A stretch of DNA of 64,000 nt, from contig NW_026250410.1 in NCBI RefSeq assembly GCF_024521635.1, positions 372,001 to 436,000 on the forward strand. Reading direction: 5' to 3'. The stretch's first letter is position 1. Each line of letters opens with the position of its first letter. The DNA comes from Tricharina praecox. Taxonomy: Eukaryota. Under the pieces are notes generated by a model. That model saw only the letters and a list, made by a program, of their open reading frames with translations. It made no database searches and was not told the DNA's origin. A program made the position numbers and the translations under genes. Below, one piece after another: positions 29,455 to 53,446 of this stretch.

Positions 29455-30996
29455 ATGCCCGCCGATTCCTCGGGCCTCTCGATACTTGGGCTCAAACCCC
29501 CGTCACCACCAGTACCGTCGTCAGCACCAGACGGCAGCAATGCCTCGCAACCCTCGCCTCCGCCGAGCACCAGCATCTTCGGGAGTCTCGGAGACAACCC
29601 TCTCTTTGCCGGGGTAACGAGCGCCCGCCCCTCCACCCGTCCTCGAAACCTCCCCCGTCTAAACGGCGCGTCTACGTAGGGACTAGCACTAGGCGCGATG
29701 ACTGCGGCGTTCCAGCTAGTGCGGCGCACCAGCACGCGCGCGCTGCATCTCGCGCGCCGCCAGCTGCTCGTCACCGTCGAGATCCCGTCCACCGATCCGT
29801 CGTACGAGTGGTTCTTGCATTTTCTGGCAGAGAGCCAGCGGGCTTCGGCATCTGCAGGATCCTACGGGACGGGAGTGATTCCCGGCTACTCGCTCTCGGC
29901 GCTACTGTCGCGGTTCCGGCCGGCGCCGCGGGAGCTGGCGGTCGAGACGCGGACTACGAAGCTGGGCTCGGGAGCGGCTGCTGCCGATTTTGTTCTGGTA
30001 CCTGGGCAGGGAAAGCATATCATCAATTACAACTCGACGCTGCTGCAGGTGGCGCGGACGCGGGATCCGCGGCGGTCCAATCCCAGCGGACTGCCGTTCG
30101 AGACGGTCGAGATCACGACGCTCAATTCGCGGCGCGGGGTGCTTTACGAGCTGCTGCGGGAGTCGCAGCAGCTTGCGCTGCACCGCGCGGAGGGGAAGAC
30201 GACGGTGTACACGTCGCGCGGGATCAGCTGGGAGCGGTTTGGCAACCCGCAGAGGAAGCGCCCGCTGGAGAGCGTCATCCTCGCGCCGGGGGTGAAGGAG
30301 GGCGTGGTCAAGGACCTGGAGGACTTCCTGTCGTCGCCGGCGTGGTACCAAGACCGCGGGATACCGTACCGGCGCGGATACCTCCTCTACGGCCCGCCGG
30401 GCACGGGGAAGACCTCGTTCGTCAAGGCAGTTGCCGGTCACCTCGACTACAACATCTGCCTGATTAACCTGTCGGAGCGCGGCCTGACCGACGATAGGCT
30501 CAACTACCTCCTGTGCAACCTCCCCGAGCGCTCCGTCGCGCTGCTGGAGGACGTCGACGCCGCCTTCGCGAACAGAAAGCAGGTGGGCGAGGACGGGTAC
30601 AGCGGCGCGAACGTGACGTTCTCGGGCCTGCTCAATGCCCTCGATGGCGCCGCCTCCGGCGAGGACAGGATTATCTTCTTGACTACTAACCACCAGGAGC
30701 GACTGGACGAGGCCCTCCTCCGCCCCGGACGTGTCGACCTCAAGGTCGAGATCGGTTGGGCTACCCCGGAGGTCGTCGATGGCATGTGGCAGCGCTTCTA
30801 TGGCGCTGGTGCGTTCCCGCAGGCAGAGAAACTGCGGGTCCGCTTCCTCCAGATCCTGACGGATGGACAACTGTTCGAGCCTGGCCGTCACGGTGTTAGC
30901 ACCGCGGAACTGCAGGGGCTGTTTTTGTTCTTTAAGAATGATCCTGAGGGCGTAGTGGGCGCCGCGGAGAATATGGTGCTGGCTAGAAAGGCGTAA
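29455..30996 (+). CDS. BCS1: Mitochondrial AAA chaperone Bcs1 (2 exons)
   Basis: DNPLFAG|GLALG (intron 29614-29679), RKRPLESVIL, WYQDRGIPYRRGYLLYGPPGTGKTS, VTFSGLLNALDG, ALLRPGRVD. Confidence 0.95.
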
Positions 30997-34893: not shown

Positions 34894-36832
34894 ATGGCGA
34901 TTTTCGCTTTCGACGACGAACAAGGGGTTAGTTCCCAGAACGGCAACACGGCAGCCCCGCGCAACAACCGCAACCCCGAAAGCGCGACCCTCCTCGAGAA
35001 GGAATGGCCACGTCTGGGAGGAAAAGCTTCGCCCGCTCTGAAGCCCGCTTCGGGTCTTCGTGGAGCGCCCCAGACCGCGAGCACCAGCGCTTCGGCGGTT
35101 GGCAGCAGTCTCGCTAGTCTTCTCGATGCTCCTACGCGCGCTGGAAAGTCCACAGGTACCGCGAAAGGCGGCCTCGCTCTGCTATTGGCGAGCTCGTGCT
35201 CCTCGTCACGCGCACCCAGCGACGCAGGTGACATCGCGGCTGAACGCGCAGCCGAGGCAGCTAGCGCATCGCGCGGACGCAAGAAGAATAAGAAGAACAA
35301 GAACAAGAACAAGGGTGCAAACAACCGCGCCACGGGTGTCAGCACGGCCGGACTCGAGAGGCCGGATTTTCTGCTCCCGCGCACCCTCAAGGCCTCGCCG
35401 TCGACTAGCTCTCTTCGCGAGCAGTTCAACGTTACGGCTCCAACCGACGCCGAGTACACTTGGGGCAACATCAAGCGCAGCCTCGATTCTTCGTCGCCTA
35501 GTTCTGTTGCGTCTTCGCCGCCGAGATCGGGACTGTCGTCGCTTTTGAGCCTGGCTCACCCGGGCGATATTGTCACCATCGGTGGAAGAGGGAGTGATAC
35601 GTCGGCGTCTTCGGAGAACGGCGGCGATGAGCCGATGGTTGCTTATGAAGTCGCCATCGACGAGGATTACGTCTCCAAAGATGTGGACTCGGCCTTCACT
35701 TCGAGGGACGCGTCGCCATCCAGGAAGAAGGTGACTGCCGACGATTTCGAGCCTTTGAAATGCTTGGGAAAGGGAGCGTAAGTTGTGCCGTATTTCTTAT
35801 TGATGACTGTATGCTAATACTGCCTTCAGGTTCGGCACGGTACTTTTGGTTCGTCACAAGCCCAGCGGTCGGCTCTACGCGCAGAAGCAGCTTAAGAAGG
35901 CTTCCATCGTAGTCCACAAGAGGGTTATCGAGCAGACCATCACTGAGAGATCCATTCTCGAAGCTGTCCGCCACCCCAACGTGGTCAAGCTGTATTACGC
36001 CTTCCAGGATCAGGAGAAGCTGTACTTGATTCTCGAGTACGCACAAGGCGGGGAATTGTTCCACCATCTCGCGGAAACTAGAATGTTCAGCGAGGACACG
36101 GCTTCCTACTACATTGCGCAGCTCGTGTTGGCACTCTCGCACCTGCACCTCAACGTCGGCGTCGTTTACCGCGACCTCAAGCCCGAAAACTGCCTTCTCG
36201 ACTCCGAGGGCCAGCTCCTCCTCACCGACTTTGGCCTCAGCAAAGTCAGCAGCGAGAGCTCGCGATGCAGTTCTCTCCTCGGGACGCCCGGCTACATGGC
36301 CCCGGAGGTACTCACCGACGATGGCTCCGAGTACGGCGCGGAAGTTGACTGGTGGGGCGTTGGGATCCTGGCATTCGAGCTGCTTACCGGCGACCTTCCC
36401 TTCAAGGGTAGCACCCCGGAGAAAGTCCACGCCGGAATCCAGCGCCGCAAGCTCCAGCTCCCCAGCTACCTCTCGAACGACGCCAAGGACTTCATCAACC
36501 GCCTGCTGCGCAAGGAGCCACAGAAGCGTCTCGGCTACAACCTCGCCAAGGACCTGCCCACCATCAAGAAACACCGCTTCTTCCGCAAGATCGATTGGGT
36601 CAAGCTCGAGGCCAGGGAACTCGTGCCACCCATTCAGCCCCTCGTCACCGACCCGCTCCTGGCTGAGAACTTCGATATGGAGTTTACCACCCAGCCGCTC
36701 AGTCCCGCTGTCGGCCATGCGTTCCCCGCCTCGTACGCCGAGGCGAAGGAGAATCCATTCGGCGGCTTTAGCTTTGTGGCGACTAGTCTGCTGGAGCAGG
36801 AGTATGCGGAGGGCAGAGTCGTGTGGACTTAG
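34894..36832 (+). CDS. psk1: AGC-family Ser/Thr kinase, S6K/Psk1/Ypk3-like (2 exons)
   Basis: LGKGA|FGTV (intron 35778-35829), YAQKQLKKASI, YRDLKPEN, TDFGLSK, GTPGYMAPE, hydrophobic motif FGGFSF. Confidence 0.85.
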
Positions 36833-38204
36833 ACGGACGGTGGAGTGGTGCGGTGCAGGAAGGGGAGATTGAGTAATTGCGCTTTTTTTTTAACTCTTTA
36901 GCTAGGGCGATGGGAATAACTTAACTTAAAAGGTTTTGGCACTTTGTTATGGGGTACTCTTCTTTTTGTTACGTCAGGTCACTCTACTTAGAGGTTAGAT
37001 GCACATGCATGTTAGAATGCGATTTGCGAATTTTACTTTATACTTTATACTTTATTGTGAGGAGGCTTTTGCTTCATACTGGAACACTCGAGTAGGTCGA
37101 GAGCAGGCCAGCTTCTCCTTCCTTCCCGAGAACCGGGTAGAGGCTAGAGCACGGAACACTGAACAACGGACGTCCCTGCCAAACTTTGGACGCCCATCGC
37201 CCGGAGATGTGAGCACGAATAAGGTTTCGTGGCGAGCGATCAAGAGTCGATACTGAGTGTCGACGCGCATATGATTGCGCGGCGGGCTGGCGGTCGAGAT
37301 CCAGTGCTGTCGACACCCAGTGCTGTCGGGGGACGAGAAACCTTCGGCAGCACCTCAGTCTGTATATAACGCCGATGATATTGTTGCTGTATCGAATGGA
37401 AGGGATTATCTCTTCCCGTCTACCCAAATACCTATTCCAACAGTTCTACATGGTCTGGCAAGTTTGAAGCTCGGGGTAGATAGATGGATTGATAGATAGG
37501 AGCAGGCGAGTCATCGTGCGTGACTCATGAGACGGTGGCCCAAGGGGGGTCATCCTACGGTATATTCGACCGGGTCGGGACTCGGGACTCGGAACTCGGG
37601 ACTCGGAGCATGATAGTTCCAAATACTAGTAGAATACACACATACATAGAGTCCGTTACCTTCCCCCTCCCGCCTGCACGCCAGTGTGGACGCGGCAAAT
37701 GAGAAAGCTAAAAGGAATGAGTATTGAACATGAACGAAGCAAACCGCACTTGCACTGGCACTCGTACATTCTCGTTCCCCATCCCTGCCCCCGATCCCGC
37801 TCCCGCTCCCGCCGCCCCCGATGGGGACACAAGTAAGTAACTTCCGATGCCATAACCGGGAAAATGGCCGAGTGCAATATGATGAACCCCAAAAAAACCG
37901 TCCAATTCAAAACTCCCTCATCCATAAATACAGAGCAAAAAAGCAGACCAAACAGACCGAACCCCCACCCAAAACCCCAACCCATAAACATAAGGAAATC
38001 GCTAGAATACAGACAACTACTATGATGGGAAATACCCGCCTACCTCCCCAGGTTGACGGTTGGTGAAATCATATCGTCCAACGTTGCGCTGGCGCTTGCA
38101 TTCTGCCGGTCACATTGTATCACTATAAGCACAATTCGCGTTTACCGTTTAGCCAATCATCCTCCCTCCTCCATCCTCCATCCATCCACGGGGGGAATGT
38201 ATAA

Positions 38205-40402
38205 TTACCCAAAACAGTCCACGGCGCCCTCCCCCACTGCAGCGTCGACATCAAACTCCTTATCGTAGGGCATCTCGACCATGCCCGCCTTCTTCCCTCG
38301 GTACTGCGCTCCAAGCTCCATCGTGGCGGGCCCGAGCGACAGCTCGAGCGTGTACTTGAACTTCCGGCAGCGCTTGCCCGTGTACGGTTCGTTTATGCCC
38401 TTTTCGTACCAGCGCACCCGCTTGCAGTCCACTTCCCACGGGAGGTAGCCGAGGGCTTTGACTTCTGTTCGGGGGGTTAGCTGGGCGGGGGAGGAGGGGG
38501 GCAGGGAAGGGAGGGGAGGGGAGGGGAGGGACCATTGGTAAACGACGACGGCGGATTATCGTTGGCGCAGTAGAGGAACATGTCATAGAACTTCCTGCAG
38601 CCAAAGTCGAACAAGCGGACCTGTATTGTTCTCTGCTCCTCGACGCGGACTTTTCTGCCGTCCTTGATCTCGTCGCCCTTCTTGAGCAGCCACTCGATCG
38701 TCTGCGCGCGCCAGAACCCATCCGCGCTGTCCCAGATCGTCTCGTTCGCTTGGTGCTCCGTCGGGTCGAAGACCGGCATCTTCACGATCCCGTACGAGTA
38801 CCGCGATACCCGAGATTGGATCATCGGGATCTTCTCGCTGCTGTCGCGGCTCCGGCATCGCTCGAGGCCCCACATTGTTGCGCCACGGCAGACCGCGGAC
38901 CAGCTGGTGGTGGGGTGTCAGCGTCCGGGGCGGGGGAGTAAATGAGTGGGAGGGGAACAAACGCATTGTCGCCTTTCAGCACCATCTTGCCGAAGCGGGC
39001 TACCAGCTTTTCGTACAGATAATTGCTCTCGCCGAAGCCGCCGACTAGGAGCACCGCTTGCGTGCGTTTGCTGTCTGTGAACATGGCCAGCTGACGCTCC
39101 ACCAGTCGTTGGACTTTCTCGCAGGTGGGGTGGAAGACCGCGGCGTTCAAATCCTTCCTGTACTATGTCAGATTTCCCCCTCCTCCCCCTCCTCCGTCTT
39201 CCCCCCAGTGGTAGCTAGGGAAACATACGGCTTGAGCGTAATAGTCTCATCATTTATCCCCTGCGGGATATTATCCTTCACTCCTCTTAGGTCGATAGTG
39301 AGCCGGCCCGTCTTTTTGTGGTTGTACTCGACAATCGGCTTGATCCCCATCTCCCAGCGCCGCATCATGTCGTGCTTGTCACGCTGGTCGAGGTTCTTGT
39401 ACTGCGTGGGTCCCACCAGCTTGCGTACGAACGCTTCGAAGGCGTAGTCGAGGTAGACGGAGCCGCAGAACCCGCCTGGGAGCTGTCAGTATCTTGCAGG
39501 CCAAAAAAACAAAAAGCTTGAAATGCTGGAGCTGTGGTTACGCACCCTCCCCGATTACGCATTCCTTCACCTGCAGCGGCTCCAGCGTAATGATCTCGTA
39601 CGTGATCAGATCGCACGTGCCGCCACCGGCATCACAAACGGTGACCACATCGCCCTGTTTCAGATGGCACCTTTCCGTGGTGGTCTTCAGCACAGCCAGC
39701 GCGGCAGCCTCCGGCTCCGGCAGCAACTCAGTGCGCTTCTCCGGTAGCCCCGCCTGCTTCGCCAGCTCCCTCGTGAGCCCAATCGTCTGCGGCGTCCACA
39801 CGGCGGGCAGCGTGAGCACAACGCGGAAATCATAGATCTCCATCCAGTCCTTCCGCAGCTTGGCGCTCAGCTCCTTCTGCACGCTCTTCCATAGCTCGCC
39901 GAGGAAGTCCACCACCACCGTGTTCACCGTCTTGCCGTACGCGGTCATCAGCTGCTGGACTTTGGCCAGCTCTGCTCCACCACCACCTCCACCTCCGCCT
40001 CCCCCTCCACCCCCTCCCCCCGTCTCTGCCGCCGGTGAAGCACTGTACGTCGGCGGCTGCAGCAGCAATTTAAACCACGTAAACGGCTCGGAGTTGCGCT
40101 TCTTGTTCGCGCGGGTCCGGCGGATGGCGGGGTATCCCCAGTGCTGCAGCTTGTGCGGCGCCTTTGTGTCGTACGTCACCGCCGTGGGAACCTTGTGCGC
40201 CGTGCGGTTCACCGCCTCAGGGTCGTGCCAGTTGTCAATTATGTGGATTTCGCGCGTGTTGTCGTTGAGGGCCCAGGAGACGCCTGAGTGGCTGGATACA
40301 CCGGACAGAACGTCAGCAAGGGAGTGGGCGGCGGGGGGATGGGGATTGGGGAGAGTACGTAGTCCCGAAGTCGATTCCAATGACCAGTTCTGTCTTCTGC
40401 AT
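38205..40402 (-). CDS. Atypical Hsp70-like (HSPA12-type) actin-fold ATPase (about 6 exons)
   Basis: MQKTELVIGIDFGTT|HSGVSWA, KVPT, TLPAVW, PEPEAAAL, VCDAGGGTCDLITY, GGFCGSVYLD, LLVGGFGESNYL, AVCRGA, SRVSRYSYG. No EEVD or ER-retention tail. Confidence 0.9.
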
Positions 40403-40596
40403 CTCGGCGTCGTAAAACTACATGTGGTATTATACGTCGTCGACTATATTTCGATAGGGCAAAATCTCCGTTCGGTTGGAATAAGTGAGCCCGGCGGGGG
40501 GGACGGACAAAAGGTCACGCCCGATATATACCTGAACTTCAGGCCTCAGGGCTGGAAAGGTAGGGCCGCGGCGGCTCTTTTCCACGAGGGTGTGTG

Positions 40597-40690
40597 CGGG
40601 GAGGAGGGGGGAGGGGGACGGGGGAGGGGGGAGGGGGGAGGGGGGAGGGCAATGGAGGGCAATGGAGGGCAATGGAGGGCAATGGAGGGC
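40597..40690. repeat. G-rich tract followed by (AATGGAGGGC)x4
   Basis: Many G4-G7 runs at 40597-40650 and four perfect 10-mers at 40651-40690. Confidence 0.9.
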
Positions 40691-43600
40691 AATAATGCTC
40701 TTAGAGGTTCCTCTGATAGACAGACAGACAGACAACCTATCTGCCTGCAGGCGGGCAGCATGATCCACAATCACCCCGCAGTATAGTATCGCACACTACA
40801 TTTGTACATAACCTACACAACCGCAACCTGAGAATTGCGTATTGCGGGGTTATGGTTTGGGTTTGTGATGATTTAGGATCCGGTTCTCGTACGCAGGCTC
40901 TATATCAGGCCAAAGACAAGTAAAGCTCGCCCACCTGCCCGGCTGCGGCGTCGAGTTGTTGGCGAACACGTACTGACGATGCACGCCGCTTTGGCTTCCC
41001 GGGTACGTAGGTAGGTAAGTACACAGGTATATACTTTAGAGTAACCATAAGGCGCAGAAGCAGAAGCAGCAGCAGAAGCAGAAGCCGAAGTACACAGGGC
41101 TCGGCTGCAGCGGGTGCTGAGCCAATGGGCCAATGGCTGCGAGGCGTGATGTGCCATGATGTGCCGTGACGTGGCCAATGGCAGTTCGGATTGAGATCGA
41201 GATGGCAGTCATGGCGAATGGCGAATGGGAGGAATGTTGATAAGGGCCGCGATGTGCTTCTACGATGGCGGTTTGGTGAGGTTTGGTGAGGTTTGGTGAG
41301 GTGAGGTTGAGGTAGGAGGTTGGAGGCACGGTCCACCAACAAGATATATTAGACGGCTGTTGGGCGGTCGTGCAGTGCGCGGTACATATGTAGACAGTCG
41401 TTGCACATCGTTCCTACATACTCTACAGCTTCCGGAGTAGGCTGGCCGTTGGCCGCTCCTGCCTTTGCAATTGTCTTATCGTCTCACGGTGATCATGTAG
41501 GTAGGCTGCCTTTCTTGCAGTGCGCACTGTGGCCAGCCAGTGTAGAACGCTGACAATACGCGGGCAGTTAGTTAGTTGGGACGAGGATTGACGGAAACTC
41601 GATTCATGGTGTTTTGGATGTTGCACGTAGGTATGGATCTCTGAATCTCGTCTCCTACGCCATTCCATAGTTTTGCTTTTGCATCTTCCCAGGTTGCCAT
41701 GCCGGCCAAACATCGACAACCACCGCTGTCATGGGCGTTGCGATTCTCTCGCCTCCCCCTCCACCTCCAGCCAACAGACACCAACGGAAATAAATATATA
41801 GGATCGCCGATGCTGATGCTGATGCTGAGCTGAGGCTGTTCGGATTACGCTCGTCCTCGTATGTATTCGACGTGGTACGTACCAAATACCTACCTCACGC
41901 ACGCGAGCCGCAGCGCAGTCGGATGCACACTCAACGTCACGAACAGACAGACATCATGCAGACATACAGACATTTTCCCATCAGTCCACAACCATCGGAT
42001 GCTCAATGCAAGACATGCCATCGCTAGAAGCACAAGATTCTTCTAGCCTTCGTTTTCGGGCCCAAGCAAGTCCGGAAGGAAGGAAACGACTCGCGATGCG
42101 ATCCAGTTGTTCGTCGTCGTCAACAACTTCATTGATCGCCTCGGGTACTGCACCCGACTGCCTGCCAGCCTGCCAGCCCACCAGCCCGCAAACATCCATT
42201 CAATTTGGGGCGGATATACGACGGTGATGCCAGCATTTCGGCACTTTGGTGCTTCGGACGACGTCAAGGTGCAGCACCCGTCTCTGGGGGATCCAGTGTG
42301 GAGCTGACACGCTGCTCGACCATTCTACAGAATCGCACTCTACGTACGCCCGAATTCCCCAACGAAGTCAACAGTGCAGCTCCTGCCCGAGCCACCAATG
42401 GTTTCGGCAGCGGGTGTGCTAGTCAGCAAGGTATTGCACACACCATCATCCGGCCTCGCGTTGTCGGCAGACCATACAGAGGCAGCGAGTCCGCATGTAA
42501 CCCCCGCCTCGCATGAATGAACGAAGCAGCCTAGCAGGGTCCGATGTGCAACGAAGAGTGCACTATGCATTATCGGCCAGTTGAACCGTGCATAATCCGC
42601 CCCTCCCTCCCCGCAGAAAGGCCCTTCGAAGCGGATCAATCACGGCGCGGTGCAGCCTGGGATGAAACATGAATTCGGTTGGTCCCTGGCGGGATTTGCG
42701 AAAATATGATACTCTATATATCTTACTCACCACTCCACTCACTCCGCTCACTCCACTCTACCTAACTCGTGTAAGTCCTCACTCAACTCTATGTTTGTGC
42801 ATGAAGCGGGCGGCAGCAGCAGCATCCTGACACGTGTGTGGACCGTAGCGTAGCGTCTTGCCAATCACCCGAGCGCTTGCTGCACTGCACTGCACTGCAC
42901 ACGGCCAGAACGGAATTTTGGTCGGAGGGATGGATCGCCATGGAGGCCAATCCAACAGTCCCCCGACTGCACATCGTCCAGCGTCGGGCTCCAGTGCTTC
43001 GAGTGCGGGCTCATCTATTTGAAGGATCCCACCCGGGGGAAGGAGAGGGGAGGGGGGATCCAAGTATTGTACAATACATGGTCATGCGGGCATAGTACTG
43101 GGCGGTGGTGGGCGTTGGTGGCTGGCCGGTCCTTCGAAATCTCCCTCCCTCCCAAACCCGCCGGGGGTGCGCTGCGTATTTGTAGTCCAAGAGGCGTCGC
43201 TAGTCATGAGCGAGTGTCAGTGTTCGGCCTGTTTGGTTCTCACCACTGGGAATGCGGGGCGGTGTTCTTTTTTTGCTCACGGCGTGACTTGAGGGAAGAA
43301 CTTGAGACGACAGGCCCCCCGGGTCCCTCCACACCTGCCTACCTACTATCATTCACCACGTCTGCTAACCTACATACCGGTACCTACCTCTACCACATCA
43401 CCAAACAAAAACGTTAAAAGGGTAATGGTCCTGCACGTAGAGATGAGCACCACAGCCTGTTTGCCTCCCCTCACAAAAAAAAATACAACACAGCCGAGTG
43501 AGCATCACGGTCTAGTCCTCCCGTTCTTCACCTCTTAACACCCGTCAACCCCCATCTCCGCGCATCACTAGTCAGGGCGGACAGCTGGGAAAACCGTTGC

Positions 43601-44062
43601 ACATCTATCAATACCTTATATCCACCCGGCAAAAACGCTCTGCCTGCTTTGCCTGCCTGCTTGCTTGTCTCCACAGCTTAGCGAGTCTGCCTTTTACCAT
43701 ACATATCATACATATCATACATACTTGCGGTCAGTAATTCCTCCAACCAGCAGGGTAGCGGTCAGTGGTCCTCACAGGTACCTCAAGCCTCAGGCCTCAA
43801 GCCACTCATCCCCGCCGCAATGGCACTCAACAGCTTGTTGCTACGATCTATGGACTGTGTCCTATGTGCCGCTCCCCTAATCCCTCCACCCGGTGAATTC
43901 CGGAAGAACATGAAGATGAATATAAGAAGCTGATGTCTGTGTCCTGCAGCCCTTTCGGATCATATCGGTTTCCACAGCCCGTAAACCTTCAATCTTCAAT
44001 CGACAAGAAAACAAACACCAAAGCCCACTGCCCAACAGCAGCAGCAGCAGCAGCAACAAACA

Positions 44063-44936
44063 ATGGGCCTCTCCTGCTCCAAAGCCGGCGCAGACACCAG
44101 CTCCTGGGATCCCAACGCACGTATATCACCGACGAACTCGACATCAGGCACCCTCCAATACACGACCGAAAAACGTGTTCCCGAGCCCCACCCAAAGATC
44201 GGGATCTCGCACGCAGCCACAATACGGCCGGTGGACGACTTCGCACTGATCCAGCAATACAACCAGCTATACATGAAAGTGCGGACATGGTCGTCGGAGT
44301 TCCTCAGCGGCGGCAGCGGGGGCGCAAAGCAGAAATCGCAGATCCCCGCCGAAGTGCGCACGCAGGTGCAGCGCGTCGTGCTGCAGGGCGATGTTGCGCG
44401 CGTCCTCGCCGATAAAACACTGCATCGACATGTCATCGAGGGCCTCGTCGGGCTCGCTGTGTCGGAGCTGTTGAGTTCGTCCCCCATCCCCATCCCTCTT
44501 TCTCTACTAACACCGCCCCGCAGCGCCCTCGAAACTCCCGCCTCCCTCCGACCCCGCGTTGCTCCGCAAGGCGGCCTCAGACCTCTGCAGCACCGTCCTT
44601 CAATTCGCCAGCAGCAAGCGCAGCAGCAAGCAGCTGAAGTCGGACCTGCTCGGGATCCTGCAGCTAGCGGCGAGCCTCGACGCCGCATTCCGGACGCAGG
44701 CCGCGGGGTTCCTCGTCGTTTACGCGCGCGTGGTCAATAGGGATACGCCTGTTAACTTTTCGGGGATGATGGAGGATAAGACGAATGGGCGTGATACGGC
44801 GACGGCGGGACAGAGGAGTGTCGGCATGATGATTTTTCCCGGGCTGTTTAAGACTTCGAAGGGAGCGAGGTCGTGTTTGGTTAAGATCAGGGTCGTGTGT
44901 AAGGATGAGATGGAGAGGTATGTGGGTAGGATCTAG
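44063..44936 (+). CDS. Hypothetical 274-aa protein with N-terminal MGLSCSK lipidation motif and GrpE/Mieap-like C-terminal beta motif (2 exons)
   Basis: Exon 44063-44474, intron 44475-44523 (GTTCGT..TACTAAC..CAG) and exon 44524-44936 join two ORFs in frame (825 nt). Confidence 0.75.
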
Positions 44937-47900
44937 GGACGAGGCGGAGTCTACACGGTGGGACAGGTCACGGTTCTTTTATTCCATGCTTTTCACTTGT
45001 TTGCTTTGTTTCGTTTAATTTAGCGGGAGCGGTTTTGTTTTCTGTTTTCTGTTTTGGGATGTTTCTGTTTATGGGGTGTTTTGGGGATGACGATGACGAT
45101 GATGATAATGATGGGATGATGGGACGATGGGACAAGGTTACGACACTACTTAATCACTTAGACTTCTTCTTCTTTTTTGTACATATATTTGAAGTTTTTT
45201 GGGGGATATCTTTTGTGGACGGGGTGGGATGGGTTGGGATGGGATTGCGGGAGGGAGAGGGGATGGTGGAAAGGATGCAGAGCAGGGCAAGGCAGGGAGG
45301 AGGGGATGGGAGGAGGGGATGGGAGGAGGAGGGGATGGGATGCAGGAACCAGTTTGCAAGATGGTGGATGGGCGAGCTGGCAGATGATGGGCCAGCTGGC
45401 AGGCGATGCACGGGAAGGAGGGATGGAGGGAGGGCCGGGGAAAGGACGGAGGAAGGGACACTTGACTAGCTGGCTGGCTGAGTTGGTGGAGGGATGGCTG
45501 GGAGGGACTAGAAGGATTGTTGGATTGGACTGGAGTCTGGACTGGATTGGACTGGGTTGGGCTGGCTGGCTGGCTGGCTGTGTGGTTGTGTGGAAGATGG
45601 AATGACTATGTGGAATGACTACCTAGAAGGATTGTTGGACTGGACTCGACTGGACTGGACTGAGATGGCTCGATGGAGGGAGAACAACATGGCTGGATAG
45701 GCAGACCGACGATCAAAGTACTCGGGAAGGGGACACTTAGTAGAGTAGGTTGACTGCGCCTGTATTGTACAATACTACCATACTACTATCATAACTATTC
45801 TACATCGTGCTCACAGAATGGACAGTGGACACAACAGACGGATGCAAATGCAATGGCGGGACTACCCACCCATCCATCCATTCCATCCATCTATGGTCTA
45901 CCTAGTAATAACTACACAGGTACTCCGTTTACCCTTTACCCGAACATCTGAGACACGTGAGACATCGATCGTGCCGGCGCTGCGAAGCTGCGGTTGGATA
46001 TTGATGTCGTTTAGGCTGGAGGCATAATTCTGTAGTGCTGACATGTTATTGGAGGGGTGGGGGGGGGGGGGGGGGGTATGTAATGAAGCGTTAGTAACGT
46101 GACTGCGGTAACTACTTCAGTAGAGTGAGTGCGTTATGGAACGCCGCTACTCTATTATGTGTGTATGTAGGTGCTGTTTTTTCTGTGAAACATGCCAGCG
46201 AGCTCGCCTGGTTGGTTGGTTGGTCAACTGATTGGCTGAGTGGGGTATTCCGGGCTTGCCAACAACTCGGCGCTTCGTGGGGGTCGGCGGGGAGTCGGGG
46301 ACTACCTGGTATGTAGCAGCTCGGTGTTCCATTGTTCCTGGAATATCGTGCCAGCGCGGGGGCATTGCTGAACATCCATCGTCGAGGCGGGCGGGCGTTT
46401 TGCTGTTCTGCTGTTTTGCTGGCATCGTCGTAGAGTTTCGTGCGGGATTGAAAGTCTCTGGTGCGATAATCTTCGTTCTTTTTTCTTTTTCTTTTTCTGT
46501 TTCTTTTTTCTTTTTCTTTTCCGCCTCATTCATCATCTTCGTTATTGTGCTTGTACACTGCATGAGTCGCAACTGCCGGGGGGCGGGGGCGGGGGAGGGG
46601 AGGGGTCACCGCACTCCTGCCCTGGTTACATGTGTGCTGTTATGCTGTGCTGTGCTGTTCGGTCGGACCATGCCGGTATGTCAGAGACTCGTCGGGATTG
46701 GAATCGGAAATCGGAAGCGCTAACTACGGTTTGCCGTGGGTAGGTGGCTGACCTCAGCCAACTGCTCCACGGGTGTATGTAGCACCGAGTGCTGGATGGA
46801 TCATGGATATCGTCGCTCGGTCGAGTGATAGGTCGGAAATTAGCCACATGTCCAGACTCTACTACCTATACCCCGGGCACCAGTCTCCGAGTGGTCCGAC
46901 TAGATAGCCAGCAGATCTATGTAGGTATCATACTCAGGTACCGCCTCACTTTGCACTGTCCAGTGTCAGCCCTAATTCAGCCACATACCCGTCTAGATTC
47001 CAGACAGACAGATCGCGATGCAGGTACATAGGTGGAGATGCACTTACGACTGGTCCCCAACGAATCTTATCGGAGATATGTGTGGATATATGTGGAGACA
47101 TGTGTACTATGTGTGGATATCGTACACAGTTGACGGGCCTAGATCATCGGGAAATCCAGCACACAACAGTGCAGGGCATGCTCTCTACCTCCGTCCTTCC
47201 ATTCATCTTTCCATCCATCCATCTTTCCTTCCATCTTTCCTTCCTTGCATCTTTCCATCCATCCATCATCCTTCCTTCTGCACCCCTACACAGCCAGCTA
47301 TATCAATCCCACCATCCCGGACTCCCGGTCGGTTGATACCTACTTAGGTCTGCGCAAGCCAGTCAGCGATTCGGTATCTTGCGAGCACCCCAGGGGATAC
47401 CCAGGTACCTGGTCTATAGTAGAAGACCGTCAGCCACACCGTCCTCTAGTGGTTGGCTACCACCGCCGTCTTCGATGCCGCCAGCACACGGTTCAGATAT
47501 ACGTACATACATACAGTAAACATACCCTACCTACCCTACCCGGTGCGTACGTAAGTATCTACGGGAGCGGGAAAACACAGCCTGAGCCTGAGCGCCGCTG
47601 GGGTCAAGCTTTACATGGTCGGCCTTACTATGTGTCCAGCCTTTCCCTGCTGAACAAGGCCCGTTCATCGTTCTTGGTTCACTATAAATCATCAACTCCT
47701 TCCTCCCCCCCTTGAACCTTCAAGCTGAAATTCCCGCAATCCCCTGGTCGAGGATGATGTGTCGAGGTCTGGTTCGATACGAGCCTGTCCCTTGTTGCCC
47801 TCTCCGTTTACCCTCGCTGGGGAGGTAGATCCGTGAGAGGATCCGTTGCGCGGACGGTGTGGATACTGGAAACAACTACTACCAATCGGAGACTCCTCGC

Positions 47901-49824: not shown

Positions 49825-52253
49825 TTACAGCAGTAACAGATCCCCCTGGTTCTGGTCGGGTTGGTACATCTGCTGCGGTGCGGACTGACTCACAACTATC
49901 ACTCGAAGCATCAGTATGGATCCAAAGAACGGGAGGCAATAAAAAAAAGACGTACCATATTGCCCAGTATTACCACCTGTGCCCACGGGCGCGAACGGAT
50001 TGAGGCCCTGGCTCGAAGTGGAAAAGTAATCATCGGCCATATCGCTGGCCAGATCCGGCTGCGGCGTGAGCTGCATTTGCTGCTGCGACGAGGAAGAGGA
50101 CGGCGTCATCATCATATCAGCGATCAGCTGTCTGCTGCGTTCCGCCGCGATGGTGGTGGGCAGCTGGTGTTTCTGCAGTGCGGGCGAATCTATAAGTTTC
50201 TTGGGCCGCGCGGTACGGAACACTTGGTTTACGGGCTTGAGGTACACCGTTGCTAGTGTGCCCACGTTTAGGCACATTTCCTCGAGCGTTGCCGGGTCGA
50301 GCTTCTCCGCTTCCGCGGTGATCGGCGGTTTCTCGCCCATGACGATCTTTTTGGCGGTTGCAGGGTCCGCCGATAGGAGCCGCCAGTACATGTACCCTCG
50401 GTCACGGAGATCCGGGTTGTCAGTTTCTTCGGTGGCCCATTTGAGGACTTTGGGCACCAAGTCCTGCCCTTTGGTGGGACGCTGGATGAAGAGTTTGACG
50501 GTTGCGGTGAGGAGGGCTAGTTGTACCTCGACCGGCTCGTCCTGGAAGGAGAAGAGGAAGTCTTCAAGGAGCACATCCGAGTTCTCGATGCGGTCCGCAT
50601 ACTGTCCGATGACCCAGATCATGGCCGCCTTCGCTTCTGGCTCGTCGAGAGAGTCGAGATTCTCGCAGAGCGTAGAGATGATTGACTCGTACTGGTTCGG
50701 GTACTTGCGGAAGATGTTGCGGATCACGACGGTGGCCTCTTGGACGATGTATGAAACCTTTGTCGCGACGAGCTCGAGGAGCGTGTTGATGCAACGGCGC
50801 GCGGCAGGTTCTATCTTGATCGCGAGTTTGCCGATAGCACGAACCGATTTGCGAACGAAGTGGACGTCGATCTCGGTGGCATATTCGCGAAGCTCCGTCA
50901 GCACTTCCTCGATGTTGTCTTCGTTCGCCAGCATGAATATTAGTTCGAGCTTGGTTACTTTAACGTAGATCGGGTCGTTGTATTTGCAGAAGAAGACGCG
51001 GATGTCATTTCGTAGCACCTCGGGACGCCGCTGCAAGATCAACAGCGCGTTCCTCAGAGCAAGGTATTGCACCTCTGGACCTTTGGCCAGCAATGTCACC
51101 AGCGGCGGAGACAGTTTCCGACAAAGAGCTGAAATATCCTTCGGGTCGGATATGTAATTCATCAGATAGAGGATCATTCGGATGCAAGTGAGCACGACCG
51201 CCGAGTTCGAATGTTGTAATCGGGGTGAAATGCGCTCTGCCATGATGCTGGCTTCACTGCAGTCTTGCGGAACGTACGACATGAGCGCCTCCAGGATGTA
51301 CGTCTGCCCCCATCTGTAGACTCATTAGAGCTTCATCCTGCACGAACATGTTGTGGACCGCCAAATAACGTACTCTGAGCAGTCTGGGAGAATCTGCACA
51401 ATCTTGGAAGCATTTGCGTGGTCGATGGTGAGCTTGATGGTCTCACTGCGCTCCCATATGTCCATCAGCGATACCAGAGCACTCGACACAACTGTCGGAT
51501 TGTCGTCTCTCAGCAACGCATTCAATCCTTCTATCAACCCCCCGCCTCCGTTCTTGACCACCGAGCTCTCCACGAGCTCTCTATCATGGTCGTAGAGCTT
51601 TGCCACGCAGAATGCCGCCGTCTTTCGCACGTAGGGGTCCGGGTCTCGGAGCAGGCCGCGTAGGGGCGTCACTGTAGCTTCGACGAACTCGCGAACGTGG
51701 ATGTAGGAGAGAGTTCGTAGGGCGAGCGCGCGGACGAGGGGATTGGGATCGTCCATATCGGACACCAGAATCGGCAGGGCATGCTGTGCCATCTCCGGCT
51801 TCAGACGGCCGTAGTTTACAAGGAACAAGAAGCACCTGCGACGTCGCGGCGGCCAGTCAGTCAAGCTCTACGTTGCAGCACATACGCCGGCAGCGCTGAA
51901 ATAATGCCGCGCCGAGACACGGACGTGCGAGTGTGCGGGCATACATCTTCTTGATCTCAAGCGCCGGAATCATCATGCACTGGATGACGTCTGGGAACAG
52001 CGCGGCCATGTCGTTATTGCTCATGGTCATATTGGCAACTATCTTTTTGAGCGCAATCTTCTTCCTCGTGAAGTTCTTGTCCTTCTTGTCGCTCTGGAGT
52101 TCGGCGCGCAGCTCGGCGACTTTGCCCTACAGAAGCACGATTCATGGTCAGCTCCGGCTGCGGGGACAATGAATGGGGGGCGGAATCGAGTGGATTCGTG
52201 AGCGGGTGGGAAGTTACCCGAGCAAAGAAGCGTGCATCACCACCGCTGGACAT
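49825..52253 (-). CDS. APL1: AP-2 adaptor complex beta subunit (multi-exon)
   Basis: [41 protein letters not shown] is AP-2 beta-type. Adaptin_N motifs [36 protein letters not shown] and [16 protein letters not shown]. Confidence 0.85.
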
Positions 52254-52707: not shown

Positions 52708-53446
52708 ATGCCGCCGAACCATCCGCCCCGTATGCCCCCTCCGCCTTGGGTTATCGACCTCAAGAACCTCCCTGCCAACAAGCCGCGCCCGGTGTCCTCC
52801 TCGATCCCCGACCCGCCTGGATTCTCCGCTCCCTCCGGCTCCAAGGTATTTGACTATCCTACAAAATGCGGCTGCCCTGGAGAAGGAAAGAGAGAGATGG
52901 GGAGAGGAGAGGAGAGGTGTCGTACAGGCAGCTAACCGCCCTTCCCCAGAAATCCGCGAAACTAGGCCCCAGCACGTCCGCGAATCCCAGCGAAACCGAT
53001 GACCTGTTCCTAAAGAAAGCGTGGGAGATCGCACTTGCGCCCGCGAAGGCCATCCCGATGAACGCTATCATGATGTACATGTCTGGCAACACGCTCCAGA
53101 TCTTCTCCATCATGATGACTGTCATGTTGTTCATGAACCCGATCAAGGCTCTCTCGACTGTTGGCTCCACGTTTTCTCGTTTCGACAACGAGCGTACCCA
53201 CGCCAGACTCTGGCCGGTTAAGCTCGCTTTCATCGCTTTGCAAATCGCCACGATAGCACTCGGAATCTGGAAGGTTAACGGGATGGGCTTACTACCGTAA
53301 GTTATACTCCACCATGCGATTTACGTATGCTTGATCCTAATATTGACTCCTGTCACAGGACTACACGCTCGGACTGGCTCGCATGGGAGAGGGAACGACA
53401 ACCGATGGAATACTCTGCACCAGCCTTCCAGGCAATTCTCAACTAA
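52708..53446 (+). CDS. EMC4: ER membrane protein complex subunit 4 (3 exons)
   Basis: KKAWEIALAPAKAIPMNAIMMYMSGNTLQIFSIMM and GIWKVNGMGLLP|TTRSDWLAWE. Introns 52846-52949 and 53297-53358. Confidence 0.93.

Follow-up and report, generated by a model that had tools for sequence, protein, structure and literature searches.

Two divergent genes in a 64,000-nt stretch of the Tricharina praecox genome (contig NW_026250410.1, positions 372,001 to 436,000; hereafter the window) raise the question whether an Hsp70-like ATPase and the protein encoded beside it work as a unit. An initial annotation, made from the sequence alone, had read the pair as a candidate for a dedicated Hsp70 and its cognate, lipid-anchored and GrpE-like co-factor, laid out like the divergent two-gene loci of fungal non-self recognition. 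The minus strand ATPase gene (ATG at 40402) and the plus strand gene of a 274-aa protein, hereafter the partner (ATG at 44063), were both confirmed, as was their head-to-head layout with 3,660 bp between the two ATGs. Linkage in four genomic contexts and a modelled complex lend support to the idea of a dedicated pair, and we are inclined, with slightly better than even confidence, to regard the locus as a two-gene module in which a lidless HSPA12-like ATPase is accompanied by a dedicated partner acting on its nucleotide state. The coordinates of the features are collected in Table 1.

Recurrence of the pair was analysed by a metagenome scan with an alignment of the partner C-terminus, which yielded 18 loci (about 10 of them distinct) with up to 10 kb of flanking sequence; these were searched by tblastn with six HSPA12-like proteins. 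ATPase genes that look intact were found beside the partner homologues in L007/L008, L012, L013 and L014, divergent in the first case and in tandem in the three others, and the loci gave no further Hsp70-like match, although E values up to 5 were admitted. L001-L003, which are too short, and L018, which ends 631 bp after the gene, were left out of this count. In an all-against-all tblastx comparison, only the two genes were common to the window, L007, L012/L014 and L013, while L012 and L014 were syntenic throughout and L013 and L018 shared upstream sequence. Since the flanks are not shared, the pair has been kept in four genomic contexts and in two orientations. By a rough and uncomputed estimate, which assumes a 40-Mb genome (approximate size) with about 10-20 HSPA12-like copies, adjacency within 10 kb would arise by chance at a rate on the order of 1%. 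The linked ATPases formed one clade (SH-like approximate likelihood ratio test, SH-aLRT, 100) with three subclades, namely window/P0003/L007/P0002, P0004/L012/L014, and L013. The clades of the partner tree were L013/L018/P0050, L012/L014/P0046/P0057 and a third group including the window and L007. The ATPase subclades correspond to the partner clades, which fits a co-duplication of the pair; both trees were made by a 'quick' method and their rows, taken from tblastn segments, are approximate.

The complex of the two proteins was modelled on stand-ins, P0002 (619 aa) and P0037 (235 aa), which are closest to the L007 pair. This combination reached an ipSAE of 0.75 in three of three runs, versus 0.00 for the best of three controls; the runs shared at least 61% of their contacts, and the predicted local distance difference test score (pLDDT) of the partner was 74. 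When the tool was calibrated, 51 of 78 solved complexes attained the mark, as did 2 of 108 mismatched pairs; among eukaryotes, the corresponding numbers were 39 of 65 for solved pairs without a like older complex and 2 of 126 for unrelated pairs. The predicted interface covered residues 42, 48-56, 290-334 and 405 of P0002 and, on P0037, the first helix (22-46), residues 76-80, scattered helix residues and the hairpin 206-215. The stretch 22-46 of P0037 maps to residues 58-82 of the partner encoded in the window, and 23 of the 32 aligned interface residues are identical between P0037 and P0001, the partner protein of the window, versus 51% overall. The model speaks for binding, and the ATPase and the partner probably bind each other.

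The surface that is predicted to be gripped lies on the nucleotide-binding domain (NBD) of the ATPase. In a profile alignment, the interface segments 51-56, 290-302 and 310-334 of P0002 align to residues 30-35, 258-270 and 278-300 of DnaK. GrpE contacts DnaK at 28-33, 51-61, 255-272 and the hairpin 276-302, as given in the available text of PMC10825016, so that the predicted footprint overlaps the GrpE contact regions 28-33, 255-272 and 276-302. According to the accessible part of PMC4753570, lobe IIB is targeted by all classes of nucleotide exchange factors (NEFs), and unrelated scaffolds, including helical bundles, converge on it in BAG, HspBP1/Sil1 and Hsp110. The footprint predicted on the ATPase NBD resembles that of NEFs, and the helical bundle of the partner is placed by the model on lobe IIB as well. 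Unlike these three factor types, the partner would add a beta-hairpin to the interface, and none of their folds appeared among the matches listed in the searches.

Both genes are transcribed and spliced. Spliced contigs were drawn from two public runs, X1 and X2, whose RNA status is only guessed at in the record; they were taken as derived from cDNA, given that three transcription units appear in their contigs with all introns removed and with canonical splice ends. In the ATPase gene, introns were delimited in both runs at 40292-40358, 39476-39545, 39158-39228, 38904-38962, about 38465-38532 and 38123-38208, each of them appearing as a CT..AC joint in the contigs (minus strand gene), and the joined exons form an open frame of 623 aa. 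The end of the coding sequence (CDS), placed at 38205 by the initial annotation, had to be moved: the in-frame TAA at 38205-38207 lies inside the last intron and is hence spliced out, and the true stop is the TGA at 38110-38112, the protein ending in ...CFGDTM. A gene model made without RNA would shorten the ATPase by four residues (...CFG versus ...CFGDTM). For the partner gene, transcript and splicing of the interval 44063-44936 were both found, the 49-nt GT..AG intron of its CDS being joined at 44474/44524 in contigs of both runs and its stop codon lying at 44934-44936. Described as unannotated at first, this gene turned out to be on record already, since the spliced product equals P0001, 'hypothetical protein BZA05DRAFT_443737 [Tricharina praecox]', letter for letter. 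The intron in its 5' untranslated region (UTR) has an alternative donor at 43865 (joint 43865/43950), seen in X1 only.

The minus strand protein is of the HSPA12-like type within the Hsp70 superfamily; 'Heat shock 70 kDa protein 12B' and 'actin-like ATPase domain-containing protein' are the names under which its homologues are filed in the source databases. The phosphate-1, phosphate-2 and adenosine motifs of the actin-like/Hsp70 NBD are all present in it. An alignment of 27 HSPA12-like proteins displayed invariant or nearly invariant columns for GIDFGTT, DAGGGT and VGGFG, all three of which occur in the window ATPase, and DAGGGT aligns to DnaK D194-T199 in the profile alignment. The profile of the 27 relatives matched DnaK/Hsc70 NBDs with E down to 5.8e-19, the best match being the DnaK NBD of 1DKG. 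Exon translations of the window ATPase matched PF00012 weakly, and in the full-length relatives P0002, P0003 and P0005 the match was confined to the NBD (profile positions 1-359 of 599). No helical lid, EEVD tail or match to a canonical substrate-binding domain was found in the window ATPase, in agreement with the description of HSPA12-type proteins on which the initial annotation had relied. The closest relative was Wilcoxina mikolae P0002, with 60% identity (572 tree columns; 591 aligned residues), and Pyronema omphalodes P0003 was 51% identical to exon 2; the protein homologue search returned no 100% database match for the ATPase of the window itself. While the restriction of PF00012 matches to the NBD and the lack of lid and EEVD are shared with HSPA12A/B, the window ATPase differs from these by a 15-residue poly-Gly insert in the N-terminal lobe, encoded by a GGN repeat at about 39975-40020 (minus strand). 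RNA contigs break at this run, with loose ends at 39977-39996, and it is possibly a length-variable coding microsatellite.

A scan of bacterial contigs with the ATPase alignment returned seven loci, four of them from Rickettsiaceae. Gene order in the latter was a 165-169-aa open reading frame (ORF), a 600-aa Hsp70-like ORF and a 110-117-aa ORF, an order which we take to resemble hscB-hscA-fdx.

The partner belongs to a small family. Exhaustive phmmer search of 1.84 billion representatives yielded 33 relatives below E 1e-3, of which 16 stayed below 1e-10 and 4 below 1e-30; short fragments made up most of the 33, and no Hsp70-partner fusion protein was among them. Relatives with names came from Trichophaea hybrida (two), Wilcoxina mikolae and the lichen-fungus genera Loekoesia and Pseudocyphellaria. 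Profile search of a word-indexed database added P0079-P0081 only and returned no Mieap or GIL1 protein, and no Pfam family was found for P0001 at E up to 10. Three blocks are conserved in the family: the first helix with DDFAIIQQYNQLYMKVR.WS.EF, the motif LHRHVIEGLVG, and a C-terminal block F.V..PR...F...M.D....R.VG.L.FPG.FK....RTC.VK.KVVC.DE. The C-terminal motif quoted in the initial annotation was indeed recovered, and conservation within the family is highest there, with the hairpin columns F242, P243, G244, F246, K247, R253, C255, V257, K258, V261, V262 and C263 invariant in 10 sequences. An AlphaFold2 (AF2) model built on a 35-row alignment (pLDDT 70.5) displayed a disordered stretch (residues 1-57) followed by six helices over 59-194, where pLDDT rises to 98; two strands (234-249, 252-263) precede the final helix, which covers 264-273. 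The helix 59-78 of this model, at the conserved first helix, had pLDDT 88-94. The C-terminal half was also predicted separately (pLDDT 66.5), and the AF2 models agree in a helical bundle, one hairpin and a final helix.

Dual acylation of an N-terminus calls for a Met-Gly start, a small residue at position 6 and a nearby Cys. The MGLSCSK of P0001 fits this rule as judged by its residues, and starts of the MG..CS/YS type recur in the nearest relatives (MGIFCSK in P0040, MGSCYSR in P0045). The motif behind the putative lipid anchor of the initial annotation is kept in the nearest relatives and replaced in others, P0037, L007 and L013 beginning with MCFGKK instead. Whether the partner is membrane-anchored appears to us evenly balanced.

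These elements can be assembled into a mechanism. A 623-aa, lidless, HSPA12-like ATPase with intact ATP-binding motifs would be met by a partner in which a disordered and probably acylated N-terminus precedes a helical bundle and, at the C-terminal end, a beta-hairpin. The first helix and the hairpin of the partner would clamp the ATPase NBD across the loop on the lobe I side (IB) and lobe IIB, a surface that would be the one used by every known Hsp70 NEF. With its clamp on this surface, the partner would control the nucleotide state of this one ATPase, by exchange or by locking, and its lipidated N-terminus may hold the ATPase at the membrane. Acceleration of nucleotide exchange itself is a tentative element of this scheme, possible but somewhat doubtful.

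The initial annotation had gone further and likened the end of the partner to a GrpE/Mieap-type head. The pair resembles the DnaK-GrpE system (1DKG) in several respects: the ATPase family profile finds its best match there, both are dedicated and genomically linked pairs, the predicted footprint on the NBD is GrpE-like, and the partner model combines a helical body with a small C-terminal beta element. The partner was nevertheless rejected as a GrpE homologue. PF01025 was matched neither by P0001 at E up to 10, nor by 26 family members at E up to 1 or 20 members at E up to 5; no GrpE chain was among the matches of the partner profile to PDB sequences at E up to 10, and none was among the matches listed in four fold searches with the whole model and the separate C-terminal half, which by itself does not exclude a GrpE fold. 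The long dimerising N-terminal helix, or coiled-coil stalk, of GrpE is absent from the model, where residues 1-57 are disordered and begin with a lipidation-type motif, and the ATPase lacks the substrate-binding domain match, lid and EEVD of DnaK. A true, highly diverged GrpE homologue is therefore hardly credible. The analogy with fungal non-self-recognition or defence loci also failed to find evidence here. The head-to-head arrangement and the paralogue expansion of the partner family would suit a divergent two-gene het locus, whereas Pfam searches found in neither protein a HET, NACHT or HeLo domain, nor any other domain linked to death or recognition, and the neighbours in the window (kinase, BCS1-like AAA, adaptin, EMC4) are housekeeping genes, which makes this explanation very improbable.

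Two other explanations concern the coupling itself. The partner may bind the ATPase without any exchange activity, as a membrane adaptor, a cleft-locking inhibitor or a regulated client, and we hold this to be unlikely while taking it seriously. Linkage and complex modelling serve it equally well, the acylation-type motifs at the N-terminus point to a targeting role, Pfam, PDB profile and four fold searches revealed no fold or sequence likeness of the partner to any known NEF, and the available text of a 2026 review (PMC13580251) gives the function of HSPA12 proteins as unknown. The predicted footprint, in coinciding with three GrpE contact regions on DnaK, speaks for exchange, although an inhibitor could use these regions too. 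Alternatively, the genes may be neighbours by descent only, an ancestral arrangement having been spread by segmental duplication with neither physical nor functional coupling. The linked cases all belong to one ATPase clade and to a single lineage, whose proteins have their nearest counterparts in Pyronemataceae, so the four contexts may trace to a single ancestral arrangement. Linkage is moreover a property of part of the family: no Hsp70-like gene was found within up to 10 kb of the partner paralogues L004-6 (Wilcoxina P0039 type), L009-11 and L015-17 (a 38-48-aa fragment only), which make three unlinked paralogue contexts, and in Wilcoxina mikolae the contig of P0039 (582,237 bp) is another than those of P0002 (1,690,262 bp) and P0004 (311,391 bp). 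In the test that accompanies the complex tool, the mark was also reached by 7 of 44 blind neighbours. Conservation gives no help to an interface either, with family-wide values of 0.559 for the partner interface versus 0.561 for the rest (p 0.43, no signal) and of 0.466 for the ATPase interface versus 0.615 for the rest of the NBD, and with P0002 and the window protein agreeing at only 16 of 31 interface residues of the ATPase versus 60% overall. The complex remains a prediction, obtained with stand-ins from two genera and modelled without the family alignments built here, and the seven-residue lipidation motif is not conserved as such across the family. All these observations, together with the missing likeness to NEFs, weigh against a dedicated ATPase-partner module. 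Mere descent would on the other hand have to account for flanks that differ between contexts while the pair stays, for an adjacency kept in divergent as well as tandem orientation, and for a complex score of 0.75 against 0.00 in controls. Taken together, we consider descent alone improbable and retain the two-gene module at the strength given above.

Paralogues without an ATPase neighbour were also inspected for other associations. Among 19 ORFs near the unlinked paralogues L004, L011 and L015, Pfam identified nothing beyond a GH15 gene and a Pol fragment of a retroelement, and no alternative recurrent partner emerged. The Pol fragment (beta-barrel PF22936, E 2.5e-10; L011:16112-16672, plus strand) lies about 5 kb from the unlinked partner paralogue, and related sequence was found by tblastx in L013 and L018. 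The Wilcoxina P0039-type paralogue at L004:9830-10702 (plus strand) is one uninterrupted ORF, and an intron at the same position is kept in the partner copies of the window, L007, L011, L012, L013, L014 and L018; the intronless copy, which lost or never had an ATPase neighbour, may be a retro-copy. At about 10001-10126 of L015, L016 and L017, a piece of 38-48 aa with the hairpin motif (P0065-like) had no detected upstream helical part and is probably a gene fragment or pseudogene.

The 3.66-kb region between the two genes, described as shared in the initial annotation, is not empty, since it carries a five-exon plus strand RNA. Its introns are located at 41499-41565, 41874-41945, 42267-42328 and 42771-42848, its contigs measure 2348 and 2045 nt, and its start was estimated from the length of these contigs. 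A further joint connects its last donor, 43728, with the acceptor 43949 in the partner 5' UTR. As its longest ORF starting with ATG has 91 aa, this RNA either is a long non-coding RNA or belongs to the partner mRNA as a long alternative 5' leader, the contigs being compatible with both. Only the part at about 40651-41132 of the spacer has next to no X1/X2 cover.

Genes around the pair are, by their sequence matches, of housekeeping types. They comprise a BCS1-like AAA ATPase (29680-30993, plus strand) and an AGC-type protein kinase (35807-36829, plus strand) on one side, and an adaptin N-terminal region protein (49828-51867, minus strand) and EMC4 (52854-53297, plus strand) on the other. The initial annotation had called the pair the only recognisable genes in about 13 kb. 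This holds for 44.9-49.8 kb, where ORFs of at least 110 aa had no Pfam match, and the nearest recognisable genes on either side are the kinase and the adaptin; the spacer and 36.9-38.1 kb lay outside the scan, which leaves the claim partly supported. Just downstream of the partner, the stretch 45000-46000 displays a strong G-over-C skew (0.386), and both of its strands contain long ORFs of low complexity, with no Pfam match.

Table 1. Positions of the ATPase gene, the partner gene and the spacer RNA in the window, with the linked loci from the metagenome scan
Feature	Position	Strand	Structure or evidence
HSPA12-like Hsp70-superfamily ATPase gene	38110..40402	-	7 exons, 623-aa CDS
ATPase gene exons	40402-40359, 40291-39546, 39475-39229, 39157-38963, 38903-38533, 38464-38209, 38122-38110	-	
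Last ATPase intron, 86 nt	38123..38208	-	Joint 38122/38209, CT..AC, X1 and X2
ATPase phosphate-2 motif DAGGGT	39616..39633	-	Sequence
ATPase motif GIDFGTT	40378-40359	-	Sequence
ATPase residues 299-343, equivalent of lobe IIB helix and beta-hairpin	39237..39371	-	Most of the predicted interface, from P0002 290-334
ATPase residues 40-48, equivalent of DnaK 28-35 loop	40192..40218	-	Second part of the predicted interface
Spacer RNA, spliced and ORF-poor	~41103..43728	+	5 exons; GT..AG joints in X1 and X2
Partner 5'-UTR intron	43729..43948	+	Joint 43728/43949, X1 and X2
Partner gene	44063..44936	+	Exon 44063-44474, intron 44475-44523, exon 44524-44936; 274 aa
Partner N-terminus MGLSCSK	44063..44083	+	Candidate N-myristoylation (Gly2, Ser6) and S-palmitoylation (Cys5); sequence only
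Conserved first helix of partner, residues 58-80, DDFALIQQYNQLYMKVRTWSSEF	44234..44302	+	Family alignment; main predicted ATPase contact
C-terminal beta-hairpin motif FPGLFK...RSCLVKIRVVC of partner, residues 242-263, included in the predicted interface	44835..44900	+	
L007/L008			ATPase divergent from partner homologue, as in the window; 2.6 kb
L012			ATPase tandem, downstream of partner homologue; 2.3 kb
L013			ATPase tandem, downstream of partner homologue; 2.7 kb
L014			ATPase tandem, downstream of partner homologue; 1.25 kb

Affinities of the partner outside its own family were sought by fold and profile comparison. For P0001, the nearest named ESM Atlas clusters were GIL1_IRKI_C, the C-terminal domain of plant GIL1/IRK-interacting proteins (PF24994), at 0.79 and MIEAP (Mieap/SPATA18, PF16026) at 0.76, the bar of the tool being 0.9. 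P0050, which is 31% identical to P0001, returned the same Atlas families at 0.83 (GIL1_IRKI_C), 0.81 (MIEAP) and 0.81, again below that bar. The MIEAP Atlas model aligned to partner residues 54-265 with template modelling (TM) scores of 0.46 by query and 0.58 by target, and the GIL1_IRKI_C plus DUF641 model with TM scores of 0.59/0.36. Residues 76-124 of P0051, which contain the FPG..K hairpin, aligned to positions 9-53 of 53 of PF24994 at E 0.19 and 12.2 bits, below the gathering cut-off of 27, and this was the only one of 26 scanned members to do so. PF16026 was matched by none of 26 members at E up to 1 and by none of 20 at E up to 5, and no DUF641 match was found. Hence, of the proposed GrpE/Mieap-type head, the GrpE part found neither profile nor fold match, while the part concerning Mieap and DUF641/IRKI-C survives as a repeatable, sub-threshold lead; we lean towards the partner being a distant fungal relative of Mieap/GIL1-IRKI C-terminal domain proteins, a rather likely relationship in our estimation.

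The resemblance to Mieap has its limits. In the available text of PMC10845071, orthologues of Mieap are reported in metazoans and not in fungi, and Mieap is described with long coiled coils and as forming condensates; no Hsp70 term occurs in that text. The best Foldseek rows for the whole partner model were COMMD proteins, which share with it the order of helical domain, short antiparallel strands and final helix, at non-significant values (E 0.04-0.1, TM 0.17-0.23). A Basidiomycota ESM Atlas cluster of 628 aa, 57% of whose members carry the GTPase domain PF01926 (MMR_HSR1), also aligned to the partner with TM 0.63 by query, and judging from this structural alignment other fungi may have the helical/hairpin module joined to a GTPase in one protein.

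A small unnamed fungal family is thus found to stay beside HSPA12-like ATPases, and its predicted binding site on them is the surface used by exchange factors. No paper was found that ties HSPA12-type proteins to Mieap, to GIL1-type proteins or to a dedicated exchange factor, nor one that joins two or more of Mieap, GIL1 and DUF641. Three papers mention HSPA12 together with the mitochondria-eating protein, and none of them, judged by title and opening of the abstract, deals with a pair of this kind. The pair makes HSPA12-type function experimentally tractable. If the likeness to Mieap and GIL1-IRKI reflects true homology, it would provide a mechanistic lead for these poorly understood animal and plant proteins and would contradict the absence of Mieap relatives from fungi as stated in the accessible part of PMC10845071. 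On a much wider scale, and this we regard as rather unlikely, domains of the Mieap/GIL1-IRKI type would be the missing dedicated co-factors of HSPA12-type ATPases across eukaryotes, perhaps also in bacteria, and would represent a fifth, structurally new class of factors gripping lobe IIB. In that event, a single conserved ATPase-partner machine, often membrane-tethered, would underlie the biology of animal Mieap, of plant GIL1/IRKI and of the orphan HSPA12 proteins.

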